Of a DNA stretch of 64,000 bases, positions 4,118 to 48,457 are shown piece after piece (within the stretch, counting starts at the first letter, position 1; every line of letters starts with the position of its first letter). The notes below the pieces were generated by a model that saw only the letters and a program-made list of their open reading frames with translations, was not told the origin of the DNA and did no database searches. This DNA comes from Geosiphon pyriformis uo1 (Eukaryota; Fungi; Glomeromycota), in NCBI GenBank assembly GCA_016748015.1, contig JAAOMT010000599.1, positions 124,001 through 188,000 of the forward strand. The letters run 5' to 3'. A program made the position numbers and the translations under genes.

Positions 4118-5036
4118 AATCAAGCAGAAAAAGTTTGGATTTATCGTACTGAATTGTAGAAAACTTTTTTTCAAAAAACTTTTGACTCTTTTTCAGGAAT
4201 TTGGGACGAAAGAGAGAAAGAAGTTTTTTATTTAATTAAAACATATAAAAAAATATTTTTATTAATAAATTATAATAAAACTATTACCAAATATTTTATT
4301 TAATAATTAAATAAATTTGTTTGTTAAAATAAAAATTTTATTAAAATAAATAATAACATATTTTTTTAAAAGCTGGTTAAAAAAAATTAATTTTAAAAAA
4401 ATTTATGTATAATCATTAATTGCTCGAGTTTTCAACTATGATTAAATTAAAAAATTGAGTAGATTGTAATCCAAAAAATTTAACATGCTCATTTCAGGTT
4501 TTTAAATACACAATAATATTATTCATATAACCAAAACAAAACTTTAGTTGACTTTATAAATTTTTTATATTTTGATTGTATTTAAAATAATTTTCTTAAT
4601 GTTGTTTAAAATAAACTCCAAGTCATGTTTTTGTATCTAAAAAATAACTTTTGTTGATATTGTTTGTTGGCTATAATCAAATAAATACAATATAAATCTG
4701 CATACAATAAACAACCAGTTTATGTAATGCTTGTGATCGACGTTGCACAATGCTCTCGACACCACTATTCAGCCAATTGGAAAAAGTTTAAAATAAAAAT
4801 AAGGATGCAGACCACAGGCAAAAATAAACCTACAAATGGCGATCTAACACTTGATCCAAACATGAAAAGGTGTGCATTTTTATAAACATATCAAGATTTC
4901 TCGGTGTTTTTTTGTTGCAAGATTTGCATTGTTATCATTTCACACTTAATCAAAAAAACATAGTTATTCAAGGATTATAAAAAACAAACACTGTAGCCGA
5001 AGTTCAACAGCAAAATATGTATCAGACTTACATATA

Positions 5037-9300: not shown

Positions 9301-10314
9301 TGTTACCAGTAGAATTTTAGCTATTAATTAACATGAAATTATTCTTATAATTCCTATCAGTAATTAACATGTTAATATCAATTCAAATTATCATTTATTA
9401 TTTAATCAATTTATCACATATTATGATTCAATTAATAATTCAATTAGTACAACAAAAAGTAAGATGATCAAATTACATAATATCTTGAACTTTGTAACAT
9501 TCAAAAATTCGCCAAAATTTACAGAAATTTGCCAAAATTTATATGAAATTTGCCAAAATTTATAGAAATTTGCCAAAATTATGAATAGTTCATCCAAATT
9601 AATTAATAATTCAGCGAAATAACTTGTAGTTCATTAAAATGTATTTTTAGTTCGCCAAAATTTGAGTAAAGAGAAAAAGTGCAAGTTTATAGACTAGTAC
9701 TACAACAAGTTGTATAAAAGAAAAGCTTTTCTCTTCAAAAAAATGTATCTTAATTTAGATTTATCACTTAGAACCATTCCTACACACAAAAAAAGAAATA
9801 AATATCAAATAAATCAAAAAACCAAATTCTTTAATTATTGCACTTGGAAAATCTCCAAAACCCAATTAACATTTTAAAATTGATTAGCTATGAATTTCAG
9901 TAAACTGTTAGTGACTCCAGGCCTGAATAGAAAACGTTTCCCTTGATAAAATCCTATTTCTTTTATATTTCTTTTATTTTTTTATTTTTTTTTCTTATTA
10001 CAATCATTAGAGTAGCCTACAGACAAGATTCCTGTAGAAGAATTGACTTTTACAGCAAAGTAACTACACATTTTTAGTGAGCTTCCAGACAAGCAATTTT
10101 TGGGAAAGAGTTGACATTTACTACAACATAACTACATAAAGTAACTGGCAAGAAATTGGCCATTCCACTTATAAGCCCAGCAAGTTCAAATTATAGAAGA
10201 TAATTTGAAGATAAATTCAGTTATTGGAGGTTTAACTACTTCTAGAAAACGTGAATTTGCAACCAACAGATATTTACAACATTCAAGAAAAGAGACCAAA
10301 AACTTCTGGTAACA
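9301..10314 (+). repeat. Family A 5' LTR (about 1014 bp)
   Basis: Terminal inverted repeats TGTTACCAG...CTGGTAACA; matches 18277-18851, and related copies at 24899-25878 (reverse) and 34394-35272. Confidence 0.95.
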
Positions 10315-10359: not shown

Positions 10360-13300
10360 GTGGCGACCACACCAGACACAACAACTCTAGAGTATCATCA
10401 GTCAATTTACACCCACTGCAAGCAAAGATTCAACATCCCAGACAGAATTGAAGTTGTTAAGAAATCAGTATACCAATATATTGAAAATTGCATCAACAAT
10501 TATCTTTTTGAAAACTACAACATTTCAGAAGTTAGAAGCAACCTCTACAATAATTTAGTGCACTATTCACAATTGGGAACAGAAAACCTGAACAGTGAAA
10601 CACTTGCTGCCTACTTCCAAGAACTTAATTTTAATATTATTGAGTACTGTGAAGAAAAATACCCAGTACAGCTCAAATACTTTTTTAACTTTGAATCAGA
10701 AACAGAGACAAGCAACAAAAACAAACAAAAAGTAAAACAATACTCAAGAATCACTCCAAACACTCCAATATTATCAAAGACAACTGCCAAACACTTGCAA
10801 ACACCTAAACAAGGAACCAGTGTCAAATTACCACTTTCTATTACACTATTTTCAATTTTACTTGTTCAACTACAAACACCAAGTTCACCACTTAACCATT
10901 TTTCCAGACCAGAAGATTTTCAGTCACCTAGAAATCTTACTCAACAACAAGAACCAATATCAACAAGTGCCAATATCATTGATTACTTACAGGAAAATGA
11001 AAGTAATCATTCAGAAAGCTTGGAAAGTGAAGAAACTGAATCAGAACCAGAAGAAATCACAGAAAACAAAGAAAAAATGGCAACTGCTTACATTGCAAAA
11101 ATTCCAGAATTCACTGGTAAAGACAATAATACCAGTCCTCAAGAATGGCTTGACAAAGTTCAAAAAGCAGGAGATGCAAATGGTTGGATTGCAGCAAGAA
11201 TGCTTAAAGCAATTCCTTACTTTCTCTAAAGAACAGCAGGAGAATAATTTGAAAATTTAGAAGAATCATTTAAAAACTGACAAGCATTCAAAAATGCTTT
11301 TCTACAACAATTCACTAACAACAATACTTCTATTACTCTCAGAAACCGCTTTCGCAATATCAAACAAGAAACATCTGAAACTGTTATAACCTATCTTGAA
11401 AGATTTAACAAACTTCTCAGATGAATCTGACAATTGGAAACCAATGACTACTATTCTAATGCTCAAATTCTGGATCAGTTTATAGCAGAGTTAAAAGACA
11501 AACTAATTAAAAAAGTCCATTCACATGCTTCAGCAGACTTAGCAACTGCTATTAAACATGCAAAAAGCTATAAAATGGCAATGAAAAAAGCAAATCACAC
11601 CAAGTTTGTAAACCTTGCAATTGGAAAAACCAGCAGCAGCTGAAGAGAAGATAGACCAACTCACAAAAAAGGTTGAAAGCTACTTCACAAACCAACAACA
11701 ACAGCAACAACAACCACAAAGATATAAACCCTTATAACAACACAACCAAAACAATTTTGGATCACCATTCAACAACCAACCTCAAAATTGTCATTATTGT
11801 GGAATTCCAGAACACTGGAAACAAGATTATAGAAAATTACAAAGAGACCAACAAAACAGGAGTAATTAACGTTACTCTTCACCACAACAATCTTATTACT
11901 AATCTCCACCACCAATTTATTATTCACCAAGACCACAAAATCAAAACAGTTACTATTCACCAGCTTCACAACCAATGCAGCAACAATATCAGCAACTTTT
12001 ACCAATTCAGCCATATCAGACACCATCCACTTAACAATATCAAGTACCAGCAAGAAGATTGGTTCAATATAACCAATTTACACCCCAAAATCAATTGCAG
12101 AGTAACAACAACAGAATCAATCCAAATAACCAGTTGGTTCCCCGAAATTCTGGTCAGCAAAGACCCAATTACTATTACACTTAACCCAGTTATCTTACAA
12201 TACCAGAGGAATCGGATTTTTAACAAACTGCACTTTCTGAAGGTGAAGTTGCAGCACCAAGATCAAACCCTTCTAATCACACCATTCCATCAGCTCAAAT
12301 TGCCCAAAATGCCAATCTGTCAGATATATTTCCATTTGAATTTGAAGCAAATGAATCACCATTTCTGCTTAATAATGCAGCAGTTAATAAACAGAAAGCA
12401 ATTACTGCTATGTATACAAAAGCTACAGTAGAAAGAAAACCCATTTGCTTAATTTTAGATAGTAAATTGGCTAAAAGTATATATACTTACCAGCTGATAC
12501 AACAACTCAAACAAAATGTAGACAGACCAGCTCAAACAGTTATTGTTACAGCTGATGGTATGAAGAAGACTCCAGTAAGAGAAATTGATGATTTCCCCTT
12601 TACAATTGATGGAATTACCATTTCAGTTAAAGTTCTTGTTATGGATGCACCCCAATACCAAGCTCTAGTCGAAAATGATTGGCTTCTCAAGACCAATGCA
12701 AACTTGAACTGAAAAACTCAAGAACTTAAAATCTCATACCAAGGACAATATACCATAGTACTTGCAACCTGTGGTACCTTTAACAAACAATCAGAAAAAG
12801 CTTCAGTATTTGAATTTGAAGAAAAGAAAGAAATGCCACTCACTGAAACCTACATGGCTCTTGGATCACCATCCAATTGGGCTGAGAAAACAGAACAAGA
12901 GATTTTTGAAGAATCAAGAGGATAGAAGAAAGTTAGATATTCTACACCAGAATCATGAAAAAAACCACCATACATTCCACTAAAATGCAAAGATTGCAAA
13001 AAGAAACTTTTATCTATGGAAGTCTGTATTTCCCCAGAAGAGAAATACGAAACTCGCATTTGTTACTTCTGCAAGGCATGCCATAGAGAATGATTTGGAT
13101 CCCCAAAGAGAAATGGAAAATTGGACAAAACTTCTTGCCTTACTTGTGGAGAAAGACTACCAGAAGAATGCAATTGGATTGATGTAGCAATGAGAAGAGA
13201 AGTATGTAATCAGACCTGTCAATATGCTTTATCAATTTTGGAAAAAGTCAGAAGAGGAACACCATTTGATGCAGTATACAACAGTGCTTTCAATAAACTT

Positions 13301-15982
13301 TACCACTACTTTTATGATGCTGAAATGATTTTTAACCTAGCAATGACATTGATTAATGAAGCCACCCAAGAAGATGTCCACCAAATGAAAGAAGCTGAAT
13401 ACATTGAGTATACCATAGAATTAGCTGGATTTGATTATGAAGATGAAATAAAAACCTACCACCAAATTGCAAGCCACACATATCTGACCAAAGAAGCTCA
13501 AATTCAATGATTAGAGCAAATAAACATTTAATTGTGTGAAAAATGTGTTATGCCTTGTGATAACCAATGGTGTTTAGAATGTTATGCTTTTAGCATTCCT
13601 CTGCCAGATGAGAATGATGAAAATGAAATCGAATTTGGAGTATCTAAACTAGTAGAAAAACTACCAACCACTCTCATCTATCTTCTTGAAAAGCAACCAT
13701 CTCTACAACTTAAATATTTTGACAACCATGGCCAAGGAATCAGACCAGAAAAAGCACACGAAATTGATGCTGGATATGACCTAAGATACCCAGGAAAAGA
13801 TACTTTGGTTCTTCAACCAAAGTTCTTGACAAAAATTAATCTCAAAATTGCTCTTGAAATACCACCAGGAGCAATGGTTCAAATTGCTTCCAGATCATCA
13901 TTGGCAAGCAAAAGAATCAATATTAAAGAAGGAGTTATAGATGCAGGATACACTGAAGACATTACCATCATGTTACAAAATAAGACAGACAAACCATTCA
14001 AAATTGAACATGCTGAAAAAATTGCTCAAGAAATTTACTTACCCTTAATCAACATTTCGGGTTTACAATTAGTAAACAACAGAGAACAATTGGGAAAAAG
14101 TGAAAGAGAAACTCAAAGTTTTGGTTCAATTGGACAATTTACAGTTCTAGTAAACATAGCTCTTAATACACAAAATGAATCTCACCAGATTCTTCAACTT
14201 TCCCAGCCAATTACCATTTCACTTTTTGGAGAACATCACGAAATTTACACTTGCTCAAAACCCACCACTACACAACAAATCTTTGAATCCAATGAACAAA
14301 TCTGTTTGAAGCATGAAATCTCAATTTCAAATGTTTATATTCCTAAAGAAATGAAAAAATTTCGAGTTACATTTTACAATCCCAATAATTACTCTATTGT
14401 TTTATTAAATAAACTAGAGATTGGAATTATACACAGCAATATTTTTCAAGATGAAAACTCTCAAATTGTTTCTAATTTCATCAAAATTTTAAGACACACT
14501 CTACTTTCAAATCCAAATATCATTCCCACTACTAAAAACTACCACTTTTTGGGAAAAAAACTCTCTCAAATCAACATGGGTCCCTTAGAACCTCAACAAC
14601 AAAGACAATTAAAACAATTGATAGCTGAATTTGCAGATATATTTGCAAAAGACAACAATGATCTGGGAAAAATGAATATGATTCAACATCAAATCCATAC
14701 AAAAGATGCTCCACCAAAACATCAGCAAGCTTATAGAGTGCCACCTGCCAGCCACCAATTTATCAAAGAAGAAGTTCAGAAAATGCTCAATAACGGATTG
14801 ATTCAACCATCAAGAAGTCCTTGGGTCTCACCAGTAGTCCTTGTCAAAAAGAAAAATGAAAAAATCAGATTTTGTGTTGACTATTGCCAATTGAACAGTA
14901 TGACAATTGGAGATGTCTACTCTCTTTCAAGAATTGATAACATGCTAGATGCTCTAGGAAAAGCCAAGTTCTTCTCAACTTTAGACTTGGAAAGTGGATA
15001 CTGGCAAGTCGAAATGGACCCAAAAAACCGACCCAAAACAGCATTTACCACCCAGGAAGGAAACTATGAGTTCAATGTTATGCCTTTTGAACTCTGCAAT
15101 ACACCAGCAACATTCCAATGACTCATAGATGTTGTATATGAAGGACTCTTATGGCAATTATTAGTTGTCTATCTTGATGATATTAATGTATACTTACCAA
15201 GCTTTGAAACTTATCTTATCCACCTGCAAGAAGTTTTTCAATGATTATGGAAAACAGGATTGAAGTTAAATATTGAAAAATGTCACTTTGGAAAAACAAG
15301 CTTAATCTTTCTCAGACATATTGTTAGCAAAAATGAAATCAAACCAAATTCTGGAACAATCAGTGCTGTCAAAAACTTTCAAACTCTCAGAAATACTACA
15401 GAACTACAAGGATTTGTAAGATTAGCCTCTTATTATTGAAAATTTATAAAAAAATTCTCAGAAATTGCCAAATCACTCAATTATCTTATCAACAAAAATG
15501 TACCATACAAATGGACTGAAGAACAACAAAAAGCTTTTGAAACTCTCAAAACAAAATTGACAACAGCCCCAGTTCTTGCTTACCCAGACTTCAACAAACG
15601 ATTCCAATTAGTCACTGATGCTTCACATATAGCATTTGGTGCCATTTTATCACAATTAGATAAAAATAACCAGGAACAAGTTATTGTCTATGCCAGCAGA
15701 ACACTCAAGCCAACAGAACTCAAATATGGCTCAACTGAATTGGAAGCCACTGCAGTCATCTGGGCTCTTAAACACTTTCAACAATACCTGAAAAATAGAA
15801 AAAAATTTGACATAATAATTGACAATATTGACCTCAAATAGCTTAATAAAAAGAAAACTGAACAAAGTGCCAAACAGTCTTGATAGAATGACTTCCTAGC
15901 AGACTACAGATACATTGTACATTACAAACCAGAAAAACTACACACCAATGTTGATAACCTCTCAAGAATAAAACAATATTAA
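10360..15982 (+). pseudogene. Family A gag-pol polyprotein (N-terminal extension, capsid, CCHC knuckle, aspartic protease, Cys-rich domain, dUTPase, RT, RNase H), inactivated
   Basis: Capsid IPEFTG...PQEWLDKV; knuckle CHYCGIPEHWKQDY; protease LILDSKLAKS; RT SPWVSPVVLVKKK, FCVDY, LDLESGYWQV, YLDD at 15170; RH LVTDASH, STELEA. One frameshift at about 11640 is explained by a 2-bp deletion relative to the copy near 46450. Confidence 0.93.
13720..14130 (+). other. Trimeric dUTPase domain within the family A pol
   Basis: All five motifs recognisable: DAGYDL, RSSLA, GVIDAGYTEDI, KIAQ, RETQSFGS (degenerate RG..GFGS). Confidence 0.92.
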
Positions 15983-16049
15983 TACCAATATCAACACCAA
16001 CAAAACACCAACAAACTTAACAGCAAAACAAACAACAAAATCAACAACA

Positions 16050-17434
16050 ATAGATCCAGAAAACTACAACAACATCAAAAACTATTTGGAGACCCTCACC
16101 ATGCCAGAAAATTGGTCTCCAAGTGAAAAACATTGATTACAACACCAATCCAAACAATATTTTATACACTACAACAAAATCTATTACAAAAATCGTAAAA
16201 ACCCAAACCAACCACTCAGATTAGTACAGAAAAATGAAAAAAAAACAATTTTATATAACATGCACACAGATCCGTCTTCAGCACACTTGAGAAGAGATGG
16301 AACAATTCAAAAAACTCTTGAACATTATTTTTGGCCTCACATGCAAAAAGACATTTGACAATATGTAGAATCTTGTGATAGTTGTTAAAGAAAAGGAGGA
16401 ATTCACCTCACAGAACCTTTAAATCCAATCAAAGTTGGACAACTGTTTGACAAAGTTGAAATTGATTTAGTCGGATCATTACCTATCACAACCCAAGGAA
16501 ATTGCTATATTGCAGTAGCAGTAGATTATCTTACCAAATGGCCTGAAACTAGAGCCATTCCAAAAGCAAATGCAAAATCAGTAGCAAATTTCATTTATGA
16601 AGACATTATTTGTAGATATGGATGCCCAATTGAACTTTTATCTGATCAAAGAACACATTTTGTGAACAACTTGATACAAGAAATTTGTGAATGATTCAAT
16701 GTCAAAAGACCTCTATCATTGCCTTATCACCTTCAAACAAATGGACTTGTAGAACGTTTCAATAGAACATTGTGTGAATTGTTGGCCAAAGTCTCAACAG
16801 ATTTTGAGCAGGAATGAGATATCTTTATTCCATCAGTGTTACTAGCATACAGAACACTAAAACAAGATACTACAAAACACACACCATTTGACCTTACTTA
16901 TGAAAGGACAGCAACATTACCAATTAATTTCACAGTAGAAACATATCCAGTGCAACCAATCAATGAAGAAAACTTTCAAGAAACACTCCAAAGAAAGGCC
17001 TACACTCTTCTCAGTATACTGGAAGGAAAAAAAAGGATAGTAGCAACTTACATTGAACATTCTCAAGCTTAACAAAAAAAAGACATGACAACAAATTACC
17101 ACCCATTATCAACGAATTTAAAGTTGGAAATAAAGTTTTCTTACACAGAACTAAGGCTGAAAAACAATAAAGTGGGAAATTTGAAAACAAATAGGATAGA
17201 CCATTTTATATTTACAAAATTCTAGACAATGGATCATACAAGTTAAGACTTAATAACAAAGTACTAGCAAAAGTTGCACATGGAAATAGATTAAAACACT
17301 ATCATTCCAGAAACAATCCTGAACCATTAATTTCACAAATTGGTACACATTCCTCTTTAATTAATCTTGAAGATATTCCTCAAAATTTAGAACCAATAAT
17401 TATAATAGAACAACAATCAAACTTAAACACTTAA
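16050..17434 (+). pseudogene. Family A integrase (HHCC, DDE core, GPY/F tail), in a separate frame from RT-RH
   Basis: MHTDPSSAH...CDSC; EIDLVG, VDYLTKWPE, LSDQRTHF, QTNGLVERFNRTL; RPFYI...NGSYKL. No chromodomain seen. Confidence 0.92.
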
Positions 17435-17588
17435 TTCAACATAATTTTACAATAATCTTTAATAATACACAAAAGACAAAAATAATAAATAATTACAAAA
17501 CATCCAAAACCCAAAAACAAATAAAACCCCAGACCCAAAAAAAATATTTTTCTTTATTCTTCTTTTTCACTAATTAGTCAATTTTATC

Positions 17589-18296
17589 ATGATTATTCCT
17601 CAAAATATTCAACAAATATCCCAAAAATTAATGTTAGCCTTGAAAACACTTCCTGACTTATCCATAATAATTAATGGAAGTTAAATCAATTACATTCAGA
17701 AAGAAACCACAGCCCCAGTAATAAATAATTCTCAGAACTACCACTCCTATAAAAGAAAAACAAGAAATCACTCTGAGAATAGGTTACCAGAACTTTTGAA
17801 GCAGGCACTAAAAGAAAACTTTTTATCTGCCCCTATTGACATTCCACCAAATGCCACAATACAACAAAAACTTTTACTATTACTTAATGAACAGAACAAT
17901 GAACATACTCTCATATTTAAATATTTTTTCATTGGAAAAACACTTTATAAACAAAAACTAGAACTTGAAGCAACAAATACCACCCCAGAAGCCATACAAA
18001 AACAAATTCACAATGAATTCAAGACAGCAGCTGGATCAACAAACACTCACTACAAACTTAGAACAGCTCTTAAACTCTATGACTTGTTTAATACTTGTGA
18101 AAATGTCCTACAAAGCCCAATACTTTAACCATTGAAAATACAATACATTGGAAAGCTCACAGAACTGAAATTTCAACAATTTTCAGAGCAAATCACTTCA
18201 ATTATCTTGGACCACTATCTTGACATTACAGATAATGCTTGGACTTTGATGGAGCTCAGTTTTGAGGAGGAGGTTATGTTACCAGTAGAATTTTAG
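17589..18296 (+). pseudogene. Family A ORF3 (post-integrase accessory protein of unknown function, about 235 aa, 2 internal stops)
   Basis: ATG at 17589 is in frame with ORF 17796-18128; the frame reads through the PPT and stops at TAG 18294-18296 inside the 3' LTR. Confidence 0.75.
18264..18273 (+). other. Polypurine tract of family A (GAGGAGGAGG)
   Basis: Purine run 3 nt upstream of the 3' LTR. Confidence 0.8.
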
Positions 18297-18851
18297 CTAT
18301 TAATTAGCATGAAATTATCTTTATAATTCCTATCAGTAATTAACATGTTAATATTAATTCAAATTATCACTTATTATTTAATCAATTTATCACATATTAC
18401 GATTCAATTAATAATCCAATTAGTACAACAGAAAGTAAGATGATCAAATTACACAATACTCTGAACTTTGTAACATTCAAAAATTCGCCGAAATTTACAG
18501 AAATTCGCCGAAATTTATAGAAATTTGCCGAAATTATGAATAGTTCATCCAAATTAATCAATAGTTCAGCGAAATAACTTGTAGTTCATCAAAATGTATC
18601 TTTAGTTCACCAAAATTTAAGCAAAGAGAAAAAGTGTAAGTTCATAGACTAGTACTACAACAAGTTGTATAAAAAAAGAGCTTTTCTCTTCAAGAAAATG
18701 TATCTTAATTTAGATTTATCACTTAAAATCATTCCTACATGCACAAAAAGAAATAAATATCAAATAATTTGAAAAACCAAATTCTTTAATTATTGCACTT
18801 GGAAAATCCCCAAAACCCAACTAATGTTTTGAAATTGATTAGCTACCAATT
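18277..18851 (+). repeat. Family A 3' LTR, 3'-truncated
   Basis: Aligns to 9301-about 9897, then similarity stops abruptly. Confidence 0.93.
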
Positions 18852-20060: not shown

Positions 20061-21557
20061 TACAAAACAATAATTAATTTACATAAATTCCACAAAGTTT
20101 GAGAACATGAATTCATGATTCTGATTTCTTAATAATTGATTTATTTCAGAAGATGAATATGGAATATAATAAATAATAAAGGGGTATAGATAAAAACAAA
20201 AAATGCCAATAATTAGAATACAACAAAAATGCTTAAAGCAATTCATATTTTCTTTAAAAAACTGTAAGTAAATAGTATTACTCATAAAAAACAGAAATTA
20301 TAATAGTTAGATAAAAACAGTCAATCAAAAATAAACATAATAAAAAGAAGAATTCCAGATTTCTTCTCAAAAAATTTCAGGATTTCAGAATTTTTCTTAA
20401 AAAATTAAAAAATTTTAAGGAATCTTATATAACAGAAATTATGTATATATATTAATAATATCAAACAAATAAAAACAAACAAATAAGTTCAGACAAAAAA
20501 GTAATTAAATACCTTTCTTTTCAAAAGTTAATTGTTTATACCTTAAAGTAAAATCATTTAAATATCAAATAAAATTATTGTTTTATTATTTAATTTATGT
20601 TATTTATATTATTGGGTTAATATTGTTATTTTCCAACTTAATCAATAACTCATATTAATAATATCTATTACTTAATTACATTAAACCAATAACTCTTAAT
20701 TATAGCTATTAACAAGATACAAATTTCTTATTTTTTTTATTTTGTTTTTTTGTTGTTTATTAATTAATTAAAAGATTAAATATTGAGATATTAATATTAA
20801 AAATAGTCTGGTAAAAAATCTGTAAAACAAAAACAAAAACTTAAAAATTGCTTACCAAAAGAGCATAATTGTTAGATTAAACCAGCCATTATGCTGAAAA
20901 AAAAATTCATAAAAGAAACTATTAATTGAATTTTTGTTCATTATATAAAGAACTCAACCAAAATCTTTAGATTATGAAAATCTTTAGAAATCCATATTAT
21001 AATTAAATATTGAATATCAAGTTACGAATTTATTATTTATTCTAATATCCCAAATAATCATTTATAACATTTAGTGCTTTTTGTAAAATATAATCTAGCA
21101 GAAAACAAAACACTATTATCAATTATTCAGAAAAGTAACAGACTTAAAAGTTATAAAAATAAATTACTTGGAATTCACAAAATTTTTATTTTAACAATAT
21201 TAACATCAGTTGAAATTAACCAGCAATTATTTCTCAGCAGAATTAGTATTTAATTCCTATATTAATAAAAAGATTATATATTTTTTAAGAAAACAAACAG
21301 ATTTTAAATTAGCAAAAGAAAATTTTTACAATAAATTATTTCAATACACTAGTTTACTACAGAATTACAATTTTACTCTAATTATCACTAAAGTAAATTG
21401 TGAAATTAAAAAGTACATTTAGCAAAAGTTTTTAATTATATTTATAGACAAAGACAAAAACAAAATACAAACACCAGTAAATACACCTAAAACAATACAA
21501 CTACTTAACTAAAAAAAATCAAAGTTATTTTTTATTACATTTATCTTACTATCATAT

Positions 21558-22283
21558 TGTTATGGTTGAAACCCATAATTTTTATTAGTTATCACATGTA
21601 TTAGCCACTGATGTCACATAAGTAGCCATTCTATTTTTAGATAGTAATCATTGATCTGATCAATGACCTGACCATTGACCTGATTATTGACCTGATTATT
21701 GATCTGATCAATGATCTGATCATTGACCTGATTATTGACCTAGTCGTTGACCTGGTCATTGACCATTTTTAATAGCTATATAAGCGATGAGTCTCTTAGC
21801 TGTAGAAAATCATCTCTCAAACAAGAATCAAATAAATAAAAATAACAACTTTCATCTCAATCACTCTTTTATTGCTAAATTTCCTTTCCCTACCTTCAAG
21901 TATCTGAACATCTTAGGATAAAAGATTACTTGTTGGCTTTTTTCTGTTTGAATAATTGTAATATTTGAAGACTATTTGTATAAACATGACTAAAAAGCAC
22001 AAGTTGATACCTGATATTGAATTCTAAAAGTGCTGACGTGAAGACATAGAATTAATACCAGCAGTAATCAATTGTTGACAGTACAGACTATTCCTCTATC
22101 TTCAGATTCCCAGTTACCTTTGAAAAGAATAGCGACTGAGATATTTTATAAGACTGATCTTGTATATTGAATCCATACTCATTCAATTTGCTCATTGAAG
22201 TTGAATCCCTTTTGATTATTTCCATCACCCTACAATCCTGTTCTCTCTTGCTATCTGTTAGCTTGTTACTTCAATCTGTAACA
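21558..22283 (+). repeat. Family B 5' LTR
   Basis: Direct repeat of 29608-30250. Confidence 0.95.
21652..21764 (+). repeat. 12-bp tandem repeat (consensus about TGACCTGATCAT) x9 in the B 5' LTR
   Basis: Nine units here versus two in the 3' LTR (about 29702-29730). Confidence 0.9.
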
Positions 22284-23929: not shown

Positions 23930-26900
23930 AGAAGAAAACCCTTTTTATGCTTTTAACTTAACTGATGATAACCATAACATAGATGAACTAGCAATCAACA
24001 CCTTAGAACCAACCAGAAAGAAGAAGAAAGCCAAGGTTGATTTCATTCTAGACCCCAACAAAGCCTTAACTTCTGTCACTGATAACAATGAGCCACCAAA
24101 GGCAAAAGTTTTTAAGAATTCTCCAAAGTTGAAACCCCCAGAAATTGTACAAAAATCTGGATCTTATTCCGTTGTCAAAGATCTTATGGAAACCCCAGCA
24201 CATATTACCTTTGGCCAGTTAATAACCCACCCACAGTTCAGAAAGAATCTTTGCAAATTCTTGATTCCAAAGAAGAAGACACCAAAAACCAACAAGCACC
24301 CTTGCCAAGTTGGACTTGTTAACAACAGCAATGTTACCCCTCTAATTTGTAAAGCCCAAGTGGCTAGATACTTCATTGACTTAATTCTGAATAGTAGATC
24401 ATCTGTTAGTGTCATTGCCAAACACTTCTTGGAAGCAATTGGTAGAAAGATTGATAAACCTTCCACCAGACCAATGACCAACGTACATAGTAATAAAAAG
24501 AAAGGACTGGGTATTGCCAAAGCTGTTTTTGTCCACATTAATAGAATCAGCATTGAAACTGACATGGAAGTTTCTGAAGCCAAGGAATACACCATCATTG
24601 TTAACAATGAATGGCTCAAGAAAGCAAAAACTTTGCTTGATTATGAACTTTGTGAATTAACCATCAGATGTGGTGAGAAACCTATTGTGGTTAAGTGTTA
24701 CCATTGGACAACTCCTCTAATACCCAAACAAAACCAAGAAGAAGAACAATCAGATGAATCAGATGATAAAGAGAGCGATAAAGAAAAAGAACAAGAAAAG
24801 CAAAAAGAAACTGCTGAATTCGCCTATACCACCTTTACCAGCAATGGCAAACCACTGGACAATATTAAAGCAGACAAAGAAAAAATCATTGTAAATGGTA
24901 TTACCAGAGGTTTTTGGTCTCTTTTCTGTAATGTTGTTGATACTTCTTTGCTGTGAATTCACGTTTTCTGGATGTGGTTGAACCTCCAGTAACTGAATTT
25001 ATCTTCAAATTATCTCCTATAATTTGAACTTGCTGGGCTTATGAGTAGAATGGCCAATTCCATGCCAGTTGCTTTATGTAGTTACGTTGTAGTAAACGTC
25101 AACTCTTTTCCAGGAATTGCTCGTCTAGAAGCTCACTAAAAATGTGTAGTTACTTTGCTGTGAAAGTCAACTCTTCTACAGGAATCTCATCTGTAGGCTA
25201 CCCTAATGATTGTAATAAGAAAATAAAAGAAAATAAAAGAAATGTAAAAGAAATAGAATTTTGTCGAGGGAAACGTTTTCTATCCAGGCCTGGAGTCACT
25301 AACAGTTTACTGAAATTGGTAGCTAATCAATTTCAAAATGTTAGTTGGGTTTTGGGGATTTTCCAAGTACAATAATTAAAGAATTTGGTTTTTTGAATTA
25401 TTTGATATTTATTTCTTTTTGTGTGTATAGGAACAGTTTTTAAGAGATAAATCTAAAATAAGATACATTTTCTCGAAGAGAGAAGCTCTTCTTTTATACA
25501 ACTTGTCATAACACTATTCTATGAACTTGAACTTTGCTATTTTCTAAAATTTCGCTGAACTAAAGATACATTTCGGCAAACTATAAGTTATTTCGGTGAA
25601 CTATTAGATATTTTGGTGAACTATCAATTATTTCGGCGAATTTCTACAAATTTCAGCAAACTTTTTGAATGTTACATAGTTCGGGTATTGCATGATTGAT
25701 CATCGCAATTAGGTTACATTTGTGTTGTGTACAATTTGGGTTATTATTTAAATGATAATTTCAGACATTTTTGCTAATGTAATAAGTAATCATTTGAAAT
25801 GATAATATATGCTAATTAATGATAGGAATTATAAGATAATTTCATGCTAAATAATATCTCTAATTTCGTTTGGTAACAATGGCAAGCTGATTTGCTGACC
25901 TTATTATGATATTCTTAGAAGAACCTTTGAAAAAAAACCTGGCAAGAAAGCCAAATACAGTTTTTGGTGGCATGGTCCTTGTGCCTGGTGTTGGTGCAAC
26001 AAACTCTTGTATTCTCTAAGCAATGAATGTAAATCATGTCTGATCTATTACAGAGATTGGGAACCAATCAGTTTGATACCCAGAGAAAAATTAAAAGAAG
26101 TACAGAAGTCCTTTAAGAATAAACCACCTGAGATCCAATCACTGATTGTAGAACAAAAAGAACTCTCTTCAGAAGAAAGAAAAATAAACATTGAAAATTT
26201 GCTGGCTAGAAATAGCCCAGTTATCTCCAAAGAAGGTAATACCTCTGGATGTACCCATGTAATACAACACACTATCACCACCAGAGAAACTTGATCCATC
26301 TATTTGAAGTCTTATCAATCCAATCAGCACAATGATAAGTTTATCAAGAAAGAGATAAACCAGATGAAAGAACTTGGATTCATACAAGAAACCAAGAGTG
26401 AATGGGCTTTTCCAATTGTAGTGGTATCCAAAAAAGGTAGAACACTATGCTTCTGTGTCGACTACTACCAATTAAATGCCATCACTAAAAGAGACATATA
26501 CCCACTTCCCAAGATAGATGCAATGTTAGACCAATTCAAAAATGCTGCTTTCTTCTCAACTATTGACTTAACTACTGGATTCTGACAAGTAGAGATGAAT
26601 CCAGAAAGCAGAAAGAAACTGCTTTTATTACCAAGTATAGTACTTATGAATTTATTGTCATGCCTTTTAGTCTTACCAATGTCTCTTCTACCTTTCAATG
26701 CTTAATGGATAAAGTATTTAAATCAGTCAAGGAAAACTTTGTTCTAGTCTATTTGGACGACATAATGGTATACTCAAAAACCTGGAATGAACACCTGGAA
26801 CATTTGCAAAAGGTTTTTGACCTCCTCAGAAATGCTGGCCTTAAGATTAATCCAATTAAATCTTTCTTTGGAAGACAATCCACCCAGTTCCTTGGTCATC

Positions 26901-27559
26901 TTATCACAAAAAATGGAATTTTTTCTGACCCAGCCAAAGTTGAAAAAGTCCAAAACATCAAACAACCAATGAATATTTATAAACTATGCTCTTTTCTTGG
27001 TTTGGCCTCTTATTATTGCAAATTTGTCAAGGATTTCTCCAAAATTGCCTTTTCTCTCAATCAGCTACTCAGGAAAAATGTCAATTACTATTGGGGAACA
27101 CATCAGCAAAAAGCCTTTGAAACTTTAAAGGAAAAACTGATTACAGAACCCATTCTTAAGCAATCTGATCTAGATCAACTCTTTATCTTCCACACTAATA
27201 CATCTGGCTTTGGACTTGGTGCTGTTTTCTTCCAGAAAGATGAAAATGGCAAAGAACATGCCATAGCCTATGCCAGTAGAACCCTTTCCTCAGCAGAACA
27301 GAACTATTCAGTCACTAAACAAGAATGCTTAGCAGTAGTATGATTCACCAGTTACTGAAGTAAGTATCTTCTTGGTGTGAAGTTTTTGGTAGTAACAGAT
27401 CACCAAGCTTTGGTTTGGCTGCACAACAAAAAGAGGCTAGAACACAAACAGATAACTCGCTGGATACTTCACTTGGATGAATTTGACTATGATATTCAAC
27501 ATCACAAAGGAGCTAATCATCAAAACACCGATGCTCTCTTTAGACTTACCATCCAGTGA
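23886..27559 (+). pseudogene. Family B pol (protease, small Cys/Trp-rich module, RT, RNase H), interrupted by a solo LTR
   Basis: LILNSRSSVS (degenerate DSGS), WAFPIVVV, FCVDY, YLDD at 26750, AYASRTL, KQECLAVV, VTDHQAL. Confidence 0.92.
24899..25878 (-). mobile_element. Solo LTR of a family A subfamily inserted in B pol; TSD ATGG
   Basis: 980-bp reverse copy of the A LTR; ATGG at 24895-24898 and 25879-25882; the empty site is visible in the B copy at about 36495-36515. Confidence 0.95.
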
Positions 27560-27626: not shown

Positions 27627-28940
27627 ATAGACTTGGACAACTACTCTGTCTTAATAGAATTTTTGAGTAAAAGACAATACCCACCAAAATACACACAACA
27701 ACAAAGAGAACATTTGTGCAAACAATCAAATTTCTATTTGATTCGCCAGAACCAACTTTATAAAAGAAATAGAAAAGATCCTGACCACCCCCAGAGAGTC
27801 ACCAGATTTGAAGAAAAAAAAATTGTGATCTACAATATGCACACTGATCCATTAGCTGGACACTTTGAAAAAACAAAAACAATTCAGAAAACTCTAGTTC
27901 ACTATTATTAGTCTATTTTGAAAAAAGATATTGCTGAATACATCAAAACCTGTGATATTTGCCAAAGAAGAGGAAAACCCAATTGCAAAGAAGATATCCA
28001 TCCAATCTCTGTTGGTCAACCCTTTGACAGAATTGGTATAGATGTTGTTGGACTTTTAGCAATAACTCCTGATGGCAACAGATACATTATCACAGCTACC
28101 AACTATCTTACAAAGTGGATAGAAGCAAGAGCCACTTCAGACCAAACAGCAGTCTCAATAGCCAATTTCATTTATGAAGATATCATTTGTTGCCATGGCT
28201 GCCCCAAAGAACTTTTATCTGACAGAGAAAGAGCTTTTCTCAGTACACTTGTTAAAGAACTTTGCAGAAAAATGGGAATACGTCACAAACTTTCCTCTTC
28301 TTATTACCTCCAAACAAATGGCCTAGTGGAACATTTCAATAGAACACTATGTGAAACCCTAGCCAAAACCAGCGAAGAAACAAACTTATGGGACAAAGTA
28401 CTGCCTTCAGCTTTGTTCGCTTATAGAATTGTGAATTATGACATAACAAGTTATGAACCCTTTTATCTATTCTATAGACAAATGGCAACCCTATCAATAG
28501 AAACTGACATTGAGACAATACCCTTTGAAAAAATAACAATAGGGAATTACAAAGACATTTTGCAAAGAAGACTTGGTACCATTCTTAATTCATTAGTAGA
28601 AGCACAGATAATTGCCTTTGAAAAGATAAAACAATTCCAAAAGAAGCTTAAGAAAAAGAAAACATATAAAACACTTTTCTTAAGTGTTGGTGATTTAGTT
28701 TTAAAATACCATTTAGACAGAGACAATGTCTATGGTGATAAATTCTCTAGCCGGTGGAAAAGACTTTTTATAGTCAACAAAGTTTTGAACAATGGTTCTT
28801 ATATCTTACAAGATCAATATGGAACAATCTTCAATAATCATCCTGTTCATGACACATGACTCAAGAAATATCACAAATGACCTAATTAGTTATCTGTTAT
28901 GGTAATACTGACCCAAATAATCAACAAAAATCAGATATAA
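27627..28940 (+). pseudogene. Family B integrase, in a separate frame from RT-RH
   Basis: MHTDPLAGH...CDICQ, GIDVVG, YLTKWIEA, LSDRE, QTNGLVEHFNRTL, NNGSYIL. Confidence 0.92.
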
Positions 28941-28981: not shown

Positions 28982-29638
28982 ATGAACAATTATTTCCTAG
29001 ATCAAAACATTCAAAATGCTTTCTACACTCTCCATGAGTACTGGATCAAAAATTATCCAAATGCTACTCTGACCATTGGAAAACAAACCACCATAACTGA
29101 TAACAGTGGAACATATACTGTTATTAAACCAAAGAAAACCACTACCAGAAGAGAAAAAATTGGTAGCAAAATAGATAAGTATTTGCTGGAAAGCATAACA
29201 GCAGCAATACTTATACCTTCTATGACAATTGAAAAAACAATTAAGGAAATCTTGCCCATAGACAAAAACTTGTCATATAGAAGACAACTAGAACTTTATA
29301 GTCATCTTGGTGAAATCATAGAAGAAATGAAGCTCATGAAGAAAACAACTTCAGAGATACAAGTGGAACTTTTGGGCATTATACATTTAGATGTCCTAAG
29401 TGTTTTGACCATTGCAAGAAGAGCCAAAACTCTTATACAAAGATTTAGTCTCTTGAATACAAAGCTTATTTTACCTCAAGTACTATATACTCTATTCACA
29501 AAAGACTTCAACAAACTAGTTATTTTTGAGTTAGACAAAACCCTTCAATTAGAATACCTTATAAATAGCTTGATTTTGCTGGAGCTCAATCTCTTTGGAG
29601 AGGATAATGTTATAGTTGAAACCCATAATTTTTATTAG
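28982..29638 (+). CDS. Family B ORF3 (218 aa, post-integrase accessory protein of unknown function), stop-free
   Basis: Open ATG-to-stop frame between the integrase and the 3' LTR, ending inside the LTR; positional and weak sequence parallel to ORF3 of family A. Confidence 0.8.
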   Translation: MNNYFLDQNIQNAFYTLHEYWIKNYPNATLTIGKQTTITDNSGTYTVIKPKKTTTRREKIGSKIDKYLLESITAAILIPSMTIEKTIKEILPIDKNLSYRRQLELYSHLGEIIEEMKLMKKTTSEIQVELLGIIHLDVLSVLTIARRAKTLIQRFSLLNTKLILPQVLYTLFTKDFNKLVIFELDKTLQLEYLINSLILLELNLFGEDNVIVETHNFY

Positions 29639-30250: not shown

Positions 30251-31665
30251 ATATATTAAAAAGTACTATTAATATATCATCAAGATTTGTATTATTATTA
30301 ATATTAAATCCAACTGTTTTAAAAATTTTATTTCAAAACAATTAAAAAAAATTCAAACTGCTAAAAACTTATGGCAATTACTTTAAAAGATTTAAGTTAT
30401 AATCAACAACTCCATTAAGATTTTAATTACTACTATCTTAATCTAATTTTGAATCCACTAGTAATTGGACAAATACTAATTCAAAAGAAAAAAAAAACAG
30501 TAATTAAAAAAATAATAAACAAAAACCTGATTTCAAATAAACCAAAAATACAAACTTTAATTGTTTAAACTCAGCAAAACCCAAACAATTTAAATTTTAT
30601 TCTTATTATTTAATAAAACATATCTTCAATCATCAAGATCAATTTACTACCAATTACACTAGTCATTGTTTAACAACTATAATAACAACTATTTATATTA
30701 ATAATATATATATCAATTGCCAAATTAGAAAAATTCACTAGTAAAAAAGACAACATCCAAGTTTGGCTAAATAATATCACCAAAGCCAATGGCTGAAATG
30801 ACATTAGAGTTTTCAAGCAATCCCATATTTTTTAAAAAATACTACTAATTTATGATATTAGAGTCTTGTAAACAAATCTAATAATTTTAACACATTCAAA
30901 ACCACATTTCTATAGTATTTTAGTAATTATAATAGCATCAATTATTTTTTAATTAGTTTTACTACTATTAAACAAGACAATACAAAAGCAGTTATTACTT
31001 ACTTAAAACATTTCTATAAAAACTTGTACCAGATTCAAACTATTGTTGCTAACTATTTTATGATACTTCAAATTTTAAATCAGTTTATTTACAAACTATA
31101 CAGTAATCTTTTGTAACAAGTATGTCTATTATATTTAAATACACTTCAAGATATAGTTACTTATGCCAGAAATTTTAAATTAGCCAAGCTTGAAGCCAAT
31201 TACACCCAAGCCATAAATTTAGTAATAAACAGATTATCTAAATTAGATTCCAAACTAAAGCAGTTTAGTGAAACAATTAATCAAAAAATAAAAGAATACT
31301 TAACTAACAATTAAACAATTTATTAGTTTTCTCAATGTTATAACAATTCAAAAAACTTTAATCAGTATTAAAATTTGTTATATTTATTATTATTATTATT
31401 AATAAATTAACAATGGCAATAAAAGATGTATATTTGCTACTATTGCCACAAATAAAACATATTAAAGCAAATTGCTATTTAAAAATAAACAGTTTATGAT
31501 TAAAAAATCAATATAAAAATTCTAATTACAGGTTTTAAATTCCAAACTATACAAATAATTTATCTTTAAATTATTATTAGTATTAGTTCTATTACTTTTA
31601 AATAATACAATCAATATATGTATTTTTTATCTATTAAATACTATAGTCCTAAATAATATATCAAC

Positions 31666-42800: not shown

Positions 42801-44344
42801 CACTAGAAAACAAAAAAAAAGAACAATTAATAATATACAAAGAACATAAGAGAAACAAAAAGAGTAATATAATAGTCAACTATCAGATAAACTAGTTAAA
42901 TTTAAAATTGAAGACAAAGTACTTTTATATAGTACCAAAGCAGAAAAACAATAGAATAAAAAATTTAACCCAAATAAAATAATCTATTTTATATTAAAAA
43001 ATATTGAAAAATAGAGCATATAAGCTAAGATTAAACAACAAATTATTCAATATAAAGACACAAAAAAAAACCAAAACTTTAATATAATTTACAATATAAA
43101 ATACACATAAGACTTAAAAACATAATAGATAATATAGTAGTACAAGTAAAAATGTTATTAAAAATACCAATAACAATAATACTATATAGTAAGTTAACTA
43201 AAAAAAATTGGAAATAGTGGGCACAACAATTTTCTAAAAACTTTTATTATTATTATTTAAGACAAAACCTTAATATTTAGAACTTATATATAGATAAAAC
43301 AAGATAAATATTTAATATGATAATATTACAACAAATAAAACAATTTATTCACATAGATATAAGCAATATACTAATTATAAACAGAATTTTAAAACTGTTC
43401 AAAAATACTGTTATATTTAATAATAAATACAATAACTATTAACCAATTAAGAAAAATTACCAATATTCAATTTGAAAAATTACAGACCAGAATTGCTCAA
43501 GTAATTCTAGAAAAAAAAGTAATAGAACTAATTCAAAAAGAAAATTTTGAAAATTTTGACAAAGCTCAATATTAAAAAAATGAAATAATATTATTCATAA
43601 AAAAATAAGAATCATAATAAATAGAAAAAATAGCCAATAAAAAATTGGCATAGTAAAAAAAGAAAAATTTCAAAATTTTTCTTAAAAAATTAAAGATTTC
43701 AAAAAATCTTATATAATAAAAAATATGTATATATAACAGTAGTATCAAAAACAAAAAAAGTAGTTAATTAGATTAAAACAGATACTTTGATAAATTAGTA
43801 TTAAAAATATTTTTATCTAAAGTAAAATTATATTAAATAAAATTATCTAATATTATTATTCATTTCATGTTATTATACTCTAATTAAAACACTTACTAAT
43901 TACATTTTATCAACAATTAATACTAGTAATATCCAATATTTAACCACACTATAACAATAATTTTTGATTATAGCTATTAATAGAATACTAATTTTTTATT
44001 TTGTTTTCTTTGTTGATTATTAATTGATTAAAAAATTAAGCACTAAGATATTAATATCAAAAATAGTTTGTTAAAAAACCCATAAAACAAGAGTGAAAAC
44101 TTAAAAATAACTTACCAAAAAGACATAACTGCCAAATTAAACTAATTATCATACTAAAGAAAAAAATTTATAAAAGAAATTATTAATTAAATCTCTGTTT
44201 ATTATACAAAAAACTCAAACAAAAATTTTTAACTTCAAAATTTTTAGAGTACAAAAACCTTTAGAAATCAACAGAATTATTAGCTACTAAACACCAAGTT
44301 ACAGATTTGTTATTTATTTTAACACCAAATAATTATCTGTAATA
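39830..44344 (+). mobile_element. Heavily mutated family C pol (RT, RH, IN), ORF3 remnant and 3' LTR (43589-44344)
   Basis: Degenerate NEFGRTNII, FCVGYRKLN, FNIMLFGLTN, YLNN (from YLDD), IGIDLV, IDYLTK; C-type LTR ending CTGTAATA. Confidence 0.85.
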
Positions 44345-47300
44345 ATAGTTCATTTTATATTAAAAAAATTCTGGAAAATAAAGCTTATAAGTTAAAATAT
44401 AACAACAAAATCTTAACCAAAGCAGCACATAATAATTAACTAAAACTATATTACAATATAGCATTTTTATCTATCAATAATATTCCACAACTAAGAATAC
44501 AACAAATTAATTAAATCAAATAAGATCTTATAAGATTTGAAACCAATTATAATCATTAAAGAAAACATGTTAAATTAATATATCAAAACAGTATATAAAA
44601 TATTAGCATATGTAATAAAAGCCACAATCAAAATAGAAATAACTGATAGTATTTACTTATTAACACAACAACTATTACAACTTATTCAACATTAAAAATT
44701 AAGCTTGGAAGTAATAATTAACAAATAAACAATACAATATAAGAACAAAAAAATAACACAAAATATTTAAAACAAAAAACAAGAGAATAGATATTATATT
44801 TCTAAAAATACAGTAAATAAAATAATAATAAAAATGAAAAAAATATTAGAAGCTACAAAAATACTAATACCAGATAAAGAATTAATTTTAGAAAATTGGA
44901 ATCAATAGATACAACAATTTTTTAAGAATTTTTATTATTATTAGTTAAGACAAAAGCTGAATATTTAAAATTTATATATGAATAAAACCAAAAAAATGTT
45001 TAATTTAATTATATTGTAATAAATAGAACAATTTATGAGAACAAACAATTTACTTATATATGTAAGAGCTATTTATTAATTACAAATAAAATTTCAAAAC
45101 TGTCTAATAATATTATTACATCCAATAATAAACATAACAATCATTAATTAATTAAGAAAAATAACTAATATTTAATTTAAAGAATTGTAGACTAGAATCA
45201 CAAAAATAATTCTAAAAAAAGAAGTAATAAAGCTAATTTAAAATAGAAATTTGGAAATTCTAAAAAATTTGAGAGATTTTAACAAAACTTAATATTAAAA
45301 AAAGAAAATAATATTACTTATAGAAAATAGAAGTCATAATAGTTAAATAAAAACAGCTAATTAGAAATAAACATAATAAAAAAAAGAATTCTAGAATTTC
45401 TCTTAAAAAATTTTAAAAAATCTTATATAATAAGAATTATGTATATATAATAGTATTATCAAACAGATAAAAACAAACAAACAAGTTCAAACAGAAAATA
45501 ATTAAATACTTCTTTCTTCAAAAGTTAGTTTTCTATATTTTAAAGTAGAATTATCTAAATATTAAATAAAATTATTATTTTATTATCTAATTTATGTTAT
45601 TTATATTATTGGGTTAATATTATTATTCTTTAACTTAATTAGCAACTTATGCTAATACCATTTATTACTTAACTACATTAAACTAATAGCTCTTGATTAT
45701 GACTATTAATAAAATATTAATTTTTTATTTTTTTTCTTATTTTCTTTTATTTTCTTTTATTTTGTTTTTTTGATGTTTATTAATTGATTAAAAGATTTAA
45801 GATATTAACATCAAAAATAGTCTAGTAAAAGACTCATGAAACAAAAATAAAAACTTAAGAATAACTTATTAAAAGAATACAACTGCCAAATTAAACTAGC
45901 TATCATGTTAAAAAAAAATTCATGAAAAAAACTATTAATTAAATCTCTGTTTATTATATAAAGAACTTAACCAAAATTTTCAAAAATCAATATTATAATT
46001 AAATATTAAGCACTAAGTACAAATTTGTTATTTATTTTAACACCCCAAATAATTATCTGTAACAATAGTTTAAAAACTTAAATAAACTCTTTAAAACTTA
46101 GCAAGCATTCAAAAATGCTTTTTTAAAACAGTTTATTAACAATAACACTTTTATTACATTTTAAAATTAGTTTTAAAACATCAAGCAAAAACTTTTTAAA
46201 TTTGTCATAACCTATTTTAAGAAGTTTAACAAACTTCTTAAATACATCTACTAATTGAAAACCAATAATTATTACTTTAATGCTCAAATTTCTGATTAAT
46301 TTATTATTAAACTAAAAGACAAATTTATTAAAAAAGTTTGTTTACATGTCCTAAAAAATTTAGCCACAGCTATTTAATATGTTAAGATCTTTGAAATAAC
46401 TATAGAAAAAGCCAACTGCACAAAACTTGTCAATTTAGCTATTAGAGAAACTAGCTTAATAGCTGAAAAAAAAATCAACCAACTTACTATAAAAGTTAAA
46501 AACTATTTTACAAATTAACAACAGCAACAATAACAGAAATATTAATTACTATAATGCCAAAACTAAAACAATTTTTTATTATTATTAAACAACCAATTCC
46601 AAAGCTGTTATTATTGTAAGATTCTAGAATATTGGAAACAAAACTACTAAAAAATACAATGAAACCAACAGCAAAGAAATAATTAACATTATTTTTAACT
46701 TTAACAGTTATATTATTAATTATTACTACTAATTTACTACTTATTAAAATCTTAAACAATTATTATCAACTTGCTCTATAACTAATATGACAACAATATT
46801 AGCAATCTTTATAAGTTTAATAATATCAACTATCTATCTAATAATATTAAGTATCTGCTTAAAAATTGATTCAAAAAACCAATTTACACCATAAAATCGA
46901 TTTTCAAACAATAAAAAAGTTAATTTTAACAATTAATTAGTTTTTTGCAATACAGTTTAACAAAAATCTAATTATTTTTACACTTAATTTAGCTATTTAA
47001 TAATATCTAAAAAACAAGATTTTTAACAAACTGCACTTTTTAAAAATAAAGTTGCAGCAACAAAACACTATTTTACCAGCCAAAATTGCCAAAAACACAA
47101 ATTTTTTTAATATCTTTTTATTCAAATTTAAGACTAAAAAATTATTATTCTTGTTTAGTAATATAGCTATTACAGAATAAAAAGCAATTACTGCTATATA
47201 CATTGAAATTAAAGTTGAAAAAAAACTAATTTGATTAATTTTAAATAATAGATTTACCAAAAGTATTATCATTTACCAATTAATACAACAACTGCAACAA

Positions 47301-48457
47301 AATATTGATTGATCAGCTCAAACTATTATTGTTATAACTGAAATATAAAAAAAACCCAGTAAAAAAATTGACAATTTTCCCTTTACAATTAATGGAATCA
47401 CTATTTCAGTTAAAGTTTTAGTTATAGATGCACTCTAATACTAAGTTCTGCTTGGAAATAATTGATTTCTTAAAGCCAATGCAAATTTAAATTAGAAAAC
47501 CTATAAATTAAAGATCTTATACCAAAAACAATATATTTGAATACTTGTTACTTGTAGTATTTTTAACAAACAGTCAGAAAAAGCTCCTGTATTTGAATTT
47601 GAAAAAAAAAACTAATTACTAAAATTTATATGACTCTTAAATTAATATTTAATTAGACTAAAAAAACAAAACAGTTATTCAAAACATCTATATTACGACC
47701 AATATTATTATGGTTTGAAAAAACCAGTTCACAATTTATCTTCATAATTAAACCAGTTAACAAATAATATGTCTTATATTCAAAACCAGAACCAAAAAAA
47801 CAACAGCCCTATATTTTAATTAAATACAAAATTGCAAAAAAAGTTTTATCTAAAGAAGTTTATATATTGTTTAAAGAAAAATATGAAACTTATACTTATT
47901 ATTACTGTAAAGCCTATTATAAAAAATAATTTGGCAGTTCAAAACAAAATGGAAAATGAGATAATATATTTTGTCTTATATATAAAAAATTACTACCAAA
48001 ATAATACAACTAAATTAATATTGCAATGAAAGAAAAAGTATGTAATCAAATTTGCTAATATGTTTTATTAATTTCTGAAAAAGTCAGACAAGAAATATTA
48101 TTTAAGATAGTATATAACAATATGTTCAACAAACTTTACTATTACTTATACAATGTTGAAATAATCTATGATCTTATTATAACTTTAATTAATAAAGCCA
48201 TCCAAAAAGATATTTACCAGATAAAAAAAGTAAAATATATTAAATACATCATAAAATTAGCTAGATTTGATTATAAAAATAAAATAAAAACTTATTACCA
48301 AAACACAAACTATACATACTTAACCAAAAAAACTTAAATTTAATAATTGAAACAAATAAATATTTATTTGTGTAAAAAATATATCATGTTTTGTAATAAC
48401 CAATGGTGTTTAAAATATTATGTACTTAGTATTTTTTTTGCCTAATAAAAGTAATAA

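Follow-up and report, generated by a model that had tools for sequence, protein, structure and literature searches.

The window, by which we mean the whole 64,000-nucleotide stretch analysed, is made up of decayed Ty3/Gypsy copies nested in one another. Two of these elements, A and B, carry a further sense open reading frame, ORF3, after the integrase (IN), and eroded ORF3 copies are present in a third family, C. The features discussed below are as follows.

9301-10314, plus strand: 5′ LTR of A, TGT...ACA, followed by a PBS-like TGGTGCTC
13532-15982, plus strand: dUTPase-RT-RNase H of A, ending at TAA 15980-15982
17589-18296, plus strand: ORF3 of A, 235 codons, the last 20 nt within the 3′ LTR
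18251-18276, plus strand: cis-element of A, GGAGCTCA at 18251-18258 and PPT at 18264-18273
18277-18851, plus strand: 3′ LTR of A, truncated, 89% identical to 9301-9896
21558-22283, plus strand: 5′ LTR of B, ATAT just before it, about 90-92% identical to the 3′ LTR
24899-25878, minus strand: solo LTR of the A2 subfamily inside B pol, with a CCAT 4-bp duplication (24895-24898, 25879-25882)
26567-27559, plus strand: RT-RNase H of B (part), ending at TGA 27557-27559
27627-28940, plus strand: integrase of B, a separate ORF in another frame, beginning with ATA in this copy and holding four decay stops
28982-29638, plus strand: ORF3 of B, 218 aa, open, the last 31 nt within the 3′ LTR
29581-29607, plus strand: cis-element of B, GGAGCTCA at 29581-29588 and PPT at about 29597-29607, the motif also occurring in A, C and the metagenome locus L001
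29608-30250, plus strand: 3′ LTR of B, TGT...ACA, with the ATAT target duplication just after it
43070-43575 (start approximate), plus strand: ORF3 of C, copy 1, eroded, its frame ended before the PPT by TAA 43573-43575
44633-45298, plus strand: ORF3 of C, copy 2, eroded, its frame ending before the PPT

We assign A and B to Ty3/Gypsy on the Pfam order gag-PR-RT-RH-IN, found in both between LTR pairs. Element B is complete, with both LTRs and an ATAT 4-bp target duplication (21554-21557, 30251-30254). With the PBS-like TGGTGCTC after the A LTR and a PPT before TGT, a PBS-like site, a PPT and a target duplication are all represented. The A and B LTRs gave no blastn match to each other. Family A has a dUTPase domain between protease and RT (13532-15121 of the window; Pfam E 2e-17), and Cys/Trp-rich or helical coding stretches with no significant Pfam match lie between protease and RT in A (13094-13510) and B (25899-26294). 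Differences between copies are mostly transitions (C>T at 235 places, G>A at 175, T>C at 133 and A>G at 119). The first bases of the A2 solo LTR encode the C-terminus of a 239-aa ORF3. Family C LTRs stand in tandem at 43572-49724 with internal fragments between them (IN end plus ORF3; gag-PR), which suggests recombination or tandem insertion.

The initial annotation had described a sense ORF after the integrase in both A and B. Both are present, but the A copy in the window contains two in-frame TAA codons, at codons 32 and 180; intact A-family versions of 221, 235 and 239 aa are common. The B frame is open, and each of the other five frames of that region holds 10-22 stops. Database searches recovered 130 relatives of B ORF3 among 376 candidates, the 120 listed comprising 119 from Geosiphon and the query, and 211 relatives of A ORF3 among 390 candidates, all 120 of those listed being from Geosiphon. 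A length of exactly 218 aa recurs in 20 of the 120 B matches listed, and the 120 A matches listed cluster at 221 (26), 239 (23), 225 (12) and 235 (3) aa. These fixed lengths indicate that the family masters already carried the ORFs. Across the B-family contigs, no ORF3 indel reached at least 10% of depth. The freely accessible papers searched held no description of ORF3, and annotated consensus elements may exist elsewhere.

A profile built from 46 A ORF3 sequences and searched against 1.84 billion representatives gave 35 matches. The eight that were looked up are six Geosiphon proteins, among them two further families, D (P0269, P0270) and E (P0271, P0272), and two intact proteins from metagenomes, P0266 (234 aa, E 2e-16) and P0268 (230 aa, E 2e-12). 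With a deeper profile, 48 of the 7,991 candidates scored were matches (47 Geosiphon proteins and P0268). Intact distant relatives are 24-37% identical. In several gene models the integrase SH3 domain PF24626 is fused to ORF3 pieces, which places these pieces after IN as well. The remnants proposed earlier in the C copies are homologous to A-type ORF3: a decay-tolerant scan with the A profile scored 67.0 and 92.8 (z 5.6 and 9.0), with 62.7 reached by 1 of 34 control segments, and the second C copy matched the family D protein P0269 by tblastn at E 1e-21. A metagenome scan yielded one locus, L001, from 349 pattern matches, with the order RT-RH, IN, a 316-nt spacer and an intact ORF3, followed by a GGAGCTCA-PPT-TGTTACC junction as in Geosiphon. 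ORF3 is thus found in seven or more families and subfamilies: A, A2, B, C, D and E, together with two metagenome types. A tblastn search of phage with ORF3 gave no match, and the viral and first metagenome scans contained no relative. An uncharacterised helical protein family with a similar pattern, which we take to be abundant in Rhizophagus and Gigaspora, is absent from both the 35 and the 48 profile matches. Several hundred G9A89 gene models annotated as "hypothetical" are, on these results, transposon pieces.

The integrase of B is encoded separately. Its frame starts 67 nt after the RT-RH stop, in a different frame, and 59% of the family depth has G at position 27629, which restores an ATG for IN. 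At the preceding stop (27557-27559), the only change listed across family contigs is G>A, which is still a stop, and no indel is listed. In A, integrase is likewise in another frame and runs from ATA 16050, 67 nt after the TAA (15980-16052). In both elements this 67-nt spacer is A/C-rich. L001 has an in-frame stop followed by an ATG for IN (772-801); the stop could be decay. In B, a 41-nt spacer leads from integrase to ORF3, giving the layout [gag-PR-(dUTPase)-RT-RH] stop [ATG IN] stop [ATG ORF3] PPT LTR. Since integrase is separately encoded, the layout is tricistronic, and ORF3 is the third cistron in a pol-IN-ORF3 series. That IN lies outside the pol polyprotein in B is a variant and gives no ground for exclusion from Ty3/Gypsy. 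Coupling by stop-start overlap was ruled out by the spacers, which measure 24-67 nt upstream of IN and 41-316 nt upstream of ORF3. No Geosiphon Gypsy element with a separate integrase was described in the literature searched, and the available text of one source (10.64898/2026.05.21.726589) does not mention Geosiphon. A pyrimidine-rich tract with TTCACTAATT occurs in the spacers before ORF3 of both A (about 17563-17572 of the window) and L001 (about 2264-2273); it is possible that TTCACTAATT is a branch point or promoter element.

At its 3′ end, ORF3 meets sequences that are kept at the DNA level. GGAGCTCA and the PPT are retained in A, B, C and L001 (about 3091-3098 in L001). The GGAGCTCA region is read as EL(S/N)..EE in A, A2 and B and in the metagenome proteins; E and C copies use a different frame for GGAGCTCA and end before the PPT. 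The C-terminal peptide shared by A and B, which had been offered as a sign of common descent, was therefore discarded as evidence of homology: it is imposed by the nucleotide motif, as AQF or AQY ends, present in 15 of the 28 proteins listed, are the same motif in another frame. Because GGAGCTCA is conserved across reading frames, the tail that the families share is a cis-element, and ORF3 need not overlap the LTR; GGAGCTCA is likely to serve plus-strand priming or RNA structure. The proposed reading-through of ORF3 across the PPT into the 3′ LTR accordingly holds for A (20 nt) and B (31 nt) but not for C and E, which stop earlier.

We determined whether ORF3 bears marks of purifying selection by comparing protein copies with a simple neutral simulation in which CpG hypermutation has no part. 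Between A (22 rows) and A2 (24 rows), the majority residue differs in 65 columns. In the 109-column core, 19 majority differences were found versus 30 expected, a number as low being reached in 2/300 and 0/300 simulations, and the A/A2 changes were more conservative than neutral ones (2/300 and 7/300 simulations). Under the same simulation, a path between A and A2 free of stops had P 0.02-0.05. The A and L001 ORF3s share identity of 0.53 at codon position 2 and 0.43 at position 3 and use different codons at 25 of 50 identical residues, the pattern of a protein-coding gene. The core deficit and the codon-position pattern are signs of the purifying selection that was to be checked, and within Geosiphon pyriformis a Ty3/Gypsy clade has in ORF3 a stable gene under selection. 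The present copies are decaying neutrally. Although the B frame is open beside a decayed pol, as had been remarked, this is expected by chance and is not evidence: RT-RH and IN of this copy hold 6 stops in 56 stop-prone codons, ORF3 has 9 such codons, and the probability of no stop in ORF3 at the stop rate of its own pol is 0.36. We rejected domestication of the B copy on the same figure. A reading of ORF3 as a chance open frame or as captured DNA evolving neutrally, for which nothing speaks beyond the missing known domain, is already largely refuted and almost certainly wrong, since ORF3 stays open at 20-37% identity across families, the other frames are filled with stops and the selection tests point the other way.

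Whether B ORF3 shares its ancestry with A ORF3 depends on the kind of comparison. BLASTP gave E 14, and profile-profile comparison with hhalign, on which the proposed relationship had been staked, was not significant, with probabilities of 0.2%, 0.6% and 1.4%. Cross-HMM scores between A and B were at shuffle level; one deep alignment scored modestly over shuffles (mean 2.55 versus -0.48 bits; best 11.3), and a rebuilt alignment hardly did (0.66 versus -0.5). No B member occurred among the A-family profile matches (0 of 35, 0 of 48). We then compared the B profile globally with a weighted profile of five families, with the PPT-coded tail removed, using a scoring scheme that is our own and was picked after the local tests had failed. 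The B profile scored 91.8 (z 6.3 against column shuffles, 0/150; z 5.0 against block shuffles, 0/150). Its N-terminal part and core, scored separately, gave z 3.4 and 3.7 (block shuffles 4/150 and 2/150), and leaving out any one family gave z 4.4-6.7. The B protein of the window scored 97.5, and none of the 170 real control segments compared, the first of a set of 232, exceeded 50.6. Low-confidence structure models of A and B (pLDDT about 43) have a matching order of helix, two strands, linker and helices. The A and B ORF3s are thus very probably homologous. Of the ordered A/B similarities listed in the initial annotation, Y..IG/LG and A..LY fall in register and the third is ambiguous. The local comparisons, together with the absence of PY from B, favor a reading in which B ORF3 is unrelated to the A/C/D/E family, so that two separate ORFs occupy one slot. 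The global scores, their stability when families are left out, the separate scores of the N-terminal part and the core, and the like order of predicted elements make this quite improbable.

The predicted structure of ORF3 starts with a helix and a beta-hairpin, from which a disordered basic linker leads to a core of about 110 aa that is helical throughout. The core is conserved at Y..IG..L, N, A.RLY..F..C..LL and I.KLT...F. AlphaFold models from shallow alignments had pLDDT 42.7 and 43.0, and with models at this level Foldseek searches of PDB and BFVD returned 0 matches at E 0.001. The best hit of a VIA fold search had Z 7.6, with none at 8, and an influenza NS1 fold row at Z 6.0 lay inside the background for helical models. 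PDB sequence searches gave nothing under E 0.2, and Pfam and NCBIfam gave no ORF3 match at a curated or significant level. The best PHROG match (E 4e-4) is to a family of unknown function. DUF1016_N (PF17761; YhcG N-terminal), which is helical like ORF3, matched weakly in one register in 5 of 46 A members (best E 0.015). We rejected this assignment, as the profile tests were not significant (hhalign 0.5%; score 16.4 versus shuffles of 12.7 +/- 2.0, maximum 17.5; global z 2.8 and 1.6) and the match fell far under the curated cut-off. Pfam and NCBIfam scans gave no profile match to the enzymatic types of ORF3 (GDSL, DEDDy, dioxygenase). Sequence and fold searches thus place ORF3 in no described domain.

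The most variable part of the linker contains PY in 27 of 46 A rows and in P0266, P0268, P0269 and P0275; in the other 19 A rows C>T decay has turned it into SY, LY or FY. The PY-NLS consensus R/H/K-X2-5-PY (PMC2408616), which is a loose criterion, occurs in A2, D, E, both metagenome types and part of A and is absent from B, where the linker has a basic cluster only. Residues 36-65 carry a net charge of +3 to +6 in 7/7 proteins counted, and the median pI of the ORF3 sets is 9.1-9.4. As judged from sequence, the conserved PY-plus-basic linker suggests nuclear import. It also bears on whether ORF3 is an Env or an sORF2-like membrane protein for spread between cells, as its position, that of env, might imply. 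A Kyte-Doolittle 19-mer of 1.6 was reached by 0/46 A and 5/33 B members, N-termini are polar by inspection and no Gypsy Env or baculovirus F profile matched in Pfam, so that a membrane role is very improbable and the earlier view of a protein with no evident transmembrane segment, not a typical Env, stands. So does its broader form, that of an accessory ORF which is conserved, confined to a lineage, not Env-like and shared by families with unrelated LTRs: ORF3 is unmatched to described domains and shows signs of purifying selection.

A possible role, which we propose tentatively and by analogy, is that of a nuclear DNA-binding regulator or anti-silencing factor. ORF3 would be translated from its own ATG, on a subgenomic or spliced RNA or by reinitiation over the A/C-rich spacer, and would enter the nucleus. 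There it would bind LTR or internal DNA of its own element, as a transactivator or anti-silencing factor, and such binding would keep the element transcribed despite host silencing. The analogy is to foamy-virus Tas and Arabidopsis VANC, without homology. In the arbuscular mycorrhizal (AM) fungus Rhizophagus, CpGs of transposable elements are methylated and small RNAs are made (10.1101/2021.03.30.436303). Identity to L001 is 20-25% for ORF3 and 43-58% for IN. Such fast divergence is expected if ORF3 tracks family-specific LTRs, and it equally fits any protein in a host arms race. Pfam, NCBIfam and PDB-sequence searches revealed no recognised DNA-binding domain in ORF3.

Somewhat doubtful is a role as integrase partner, in which ORF3 would ferry the pre-integration complex into coenocyte nuclei or tether it to chromatin, acting in trans much as the chromodomain of other Gypsy integrases acts in cis. 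ORF3 directly follows IN, which is itself a free-standing ORF and stops after the GPY/F-SH3 region without a chromodomain match, and the PY/basic linker would suit such a function. The 4-bp targets, however, need no cofactor, given the Ginger1 duplications described below, and ORF3 is much less conserved than IN. The duplications or flanks read in the window are ATAT, CCAT, ACAT, CCAG and GTAG (including those at 9297-9300, near 34390 and near 39830). Their centre is TA or CA in 5/5, giving the pattern N(C/T)(G/A)N, which is compatible with decayed NCGN, i.e., CpG-centred insertion.

ORF3 might also be an RNA-binding accessory protein, be it an RNAi suppressor, an RNA export factor or a particle component; we consider this unlikely. 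It is basic, helical and soluble, and PY motifs are typical of RNA-binding cargoes. Small RNAs from transposable elements are made in AM fungi (10.1101/2021.03.30.436303). Against these points, no RNA-binding domain matched and the NS1-like fold row lies within background. Because ORF3 diverges with the LTRs and far faster than IN, and because IN alone can explain the target preference, we weakly prefer a regulator to an integrase partner or an RNA binder.

Most known accessory genes of LTR retrotransposons come from animals and plants. Foamy-virus Tas/Bel2 and HIV nef are retroviral 3′ accessory genes, and the VANC proteins of VANDAL elements are anti-silencing proteins. Like these, ORF3 is a 3′ gene able to cross the PPT into U3 and a candidate element-encoded nuclear regulator, a functional analogy; unlike them, it resides in a fungal Gypsy element, its role is a prediction and no homology was found. 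Ty3/Gypsy elements of bdelloid rotifers have a non-Env ORF3 (GDSL esterase, DEDDy exonuclease) and a dUTPase in pol (PMC5408684). The Geosiphon elements resemble them in that env is replaced by a further sense ORF downstream of pol and, in family A, a dUTPase lies between PR and RT. The rotifer proteins are recognisable enzymes or membrane proteins, whereas Geosiphon ORF3 is unmatched and IN is separate. Plant Ogre/Tat elements and other post-pol captures carry extra ORFs of unknown function (PMC6431247), and these too are conserved accessory ORFs with no known domain in Gypsy elements. Hosts and lineages differ, and the general database searches gave no sequence link. In the MDG1 group (Drosophila 412), sORF1 is nuclear with a predicted helix-turn-helix and sORF2 is a membrane protein (10.1101/2025.03.14.642691). 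These are likewise Env-less Gypsy elements with accessory ORFs, but the sORFs are 70-110 aa and upstream of gag, and Geosiphon ORF3 is 218-244 aa, follows IN and is soluble. Ginger1 transposons and YPYY-type Gypsy integrases, including Gypsy-1-I_RO, are a further point of comparison (PMC2836005). The likeness lies in TGTNR ends, in 4-bp duplications that fit decayed NCGN, and in a GPY/F-type integrase; CCGG/CCGT duplications are recorded for Ginger1 transposases, which have a Gypsy-like IN (PMC2836005). Unlike Ginger1, the Geosiphon elements have LTRs, RT and ORF3, and the likeness is one of shared features.

ORF3 apparently represents an accessory protein family that has not been described before, in a Gypsy clade of unusual gene layout. 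An orphan ORF3 in families that dominate the Geosiphon genome is a candidate for beating fungal methylation or RNAi, or for reaching the nuclei of a coenocyte, and with a free-standing integrase it suggests an uncommon mode of retroelement genome expression. LTR sequence makes up 41.2% of the Geosiphon genome (PMC11952901). It seems unlikely that every part holds of the fullest reading, namely that a tricistronic Gypsy clade encodes a sequence-specific anti-silencing transactivator for its own use, which belongs to no described family, is the first in a fungal retrotransposon and enabled LTR elements to fill 41% of the genome.

Elsewhere in the window, a decayed LINE-like element with endonuclease- and RT-like ORFs was seen by inspection on the minus strand at 604-4235, and in gene model P0270 ORF3 is fused to sequence resembling it. 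Host genes begin in the region 53800-62018, where, judged by eye, an SMG7/Est1-like gene lies on the minus strand and an EH-domain-like gene on the plus strand.
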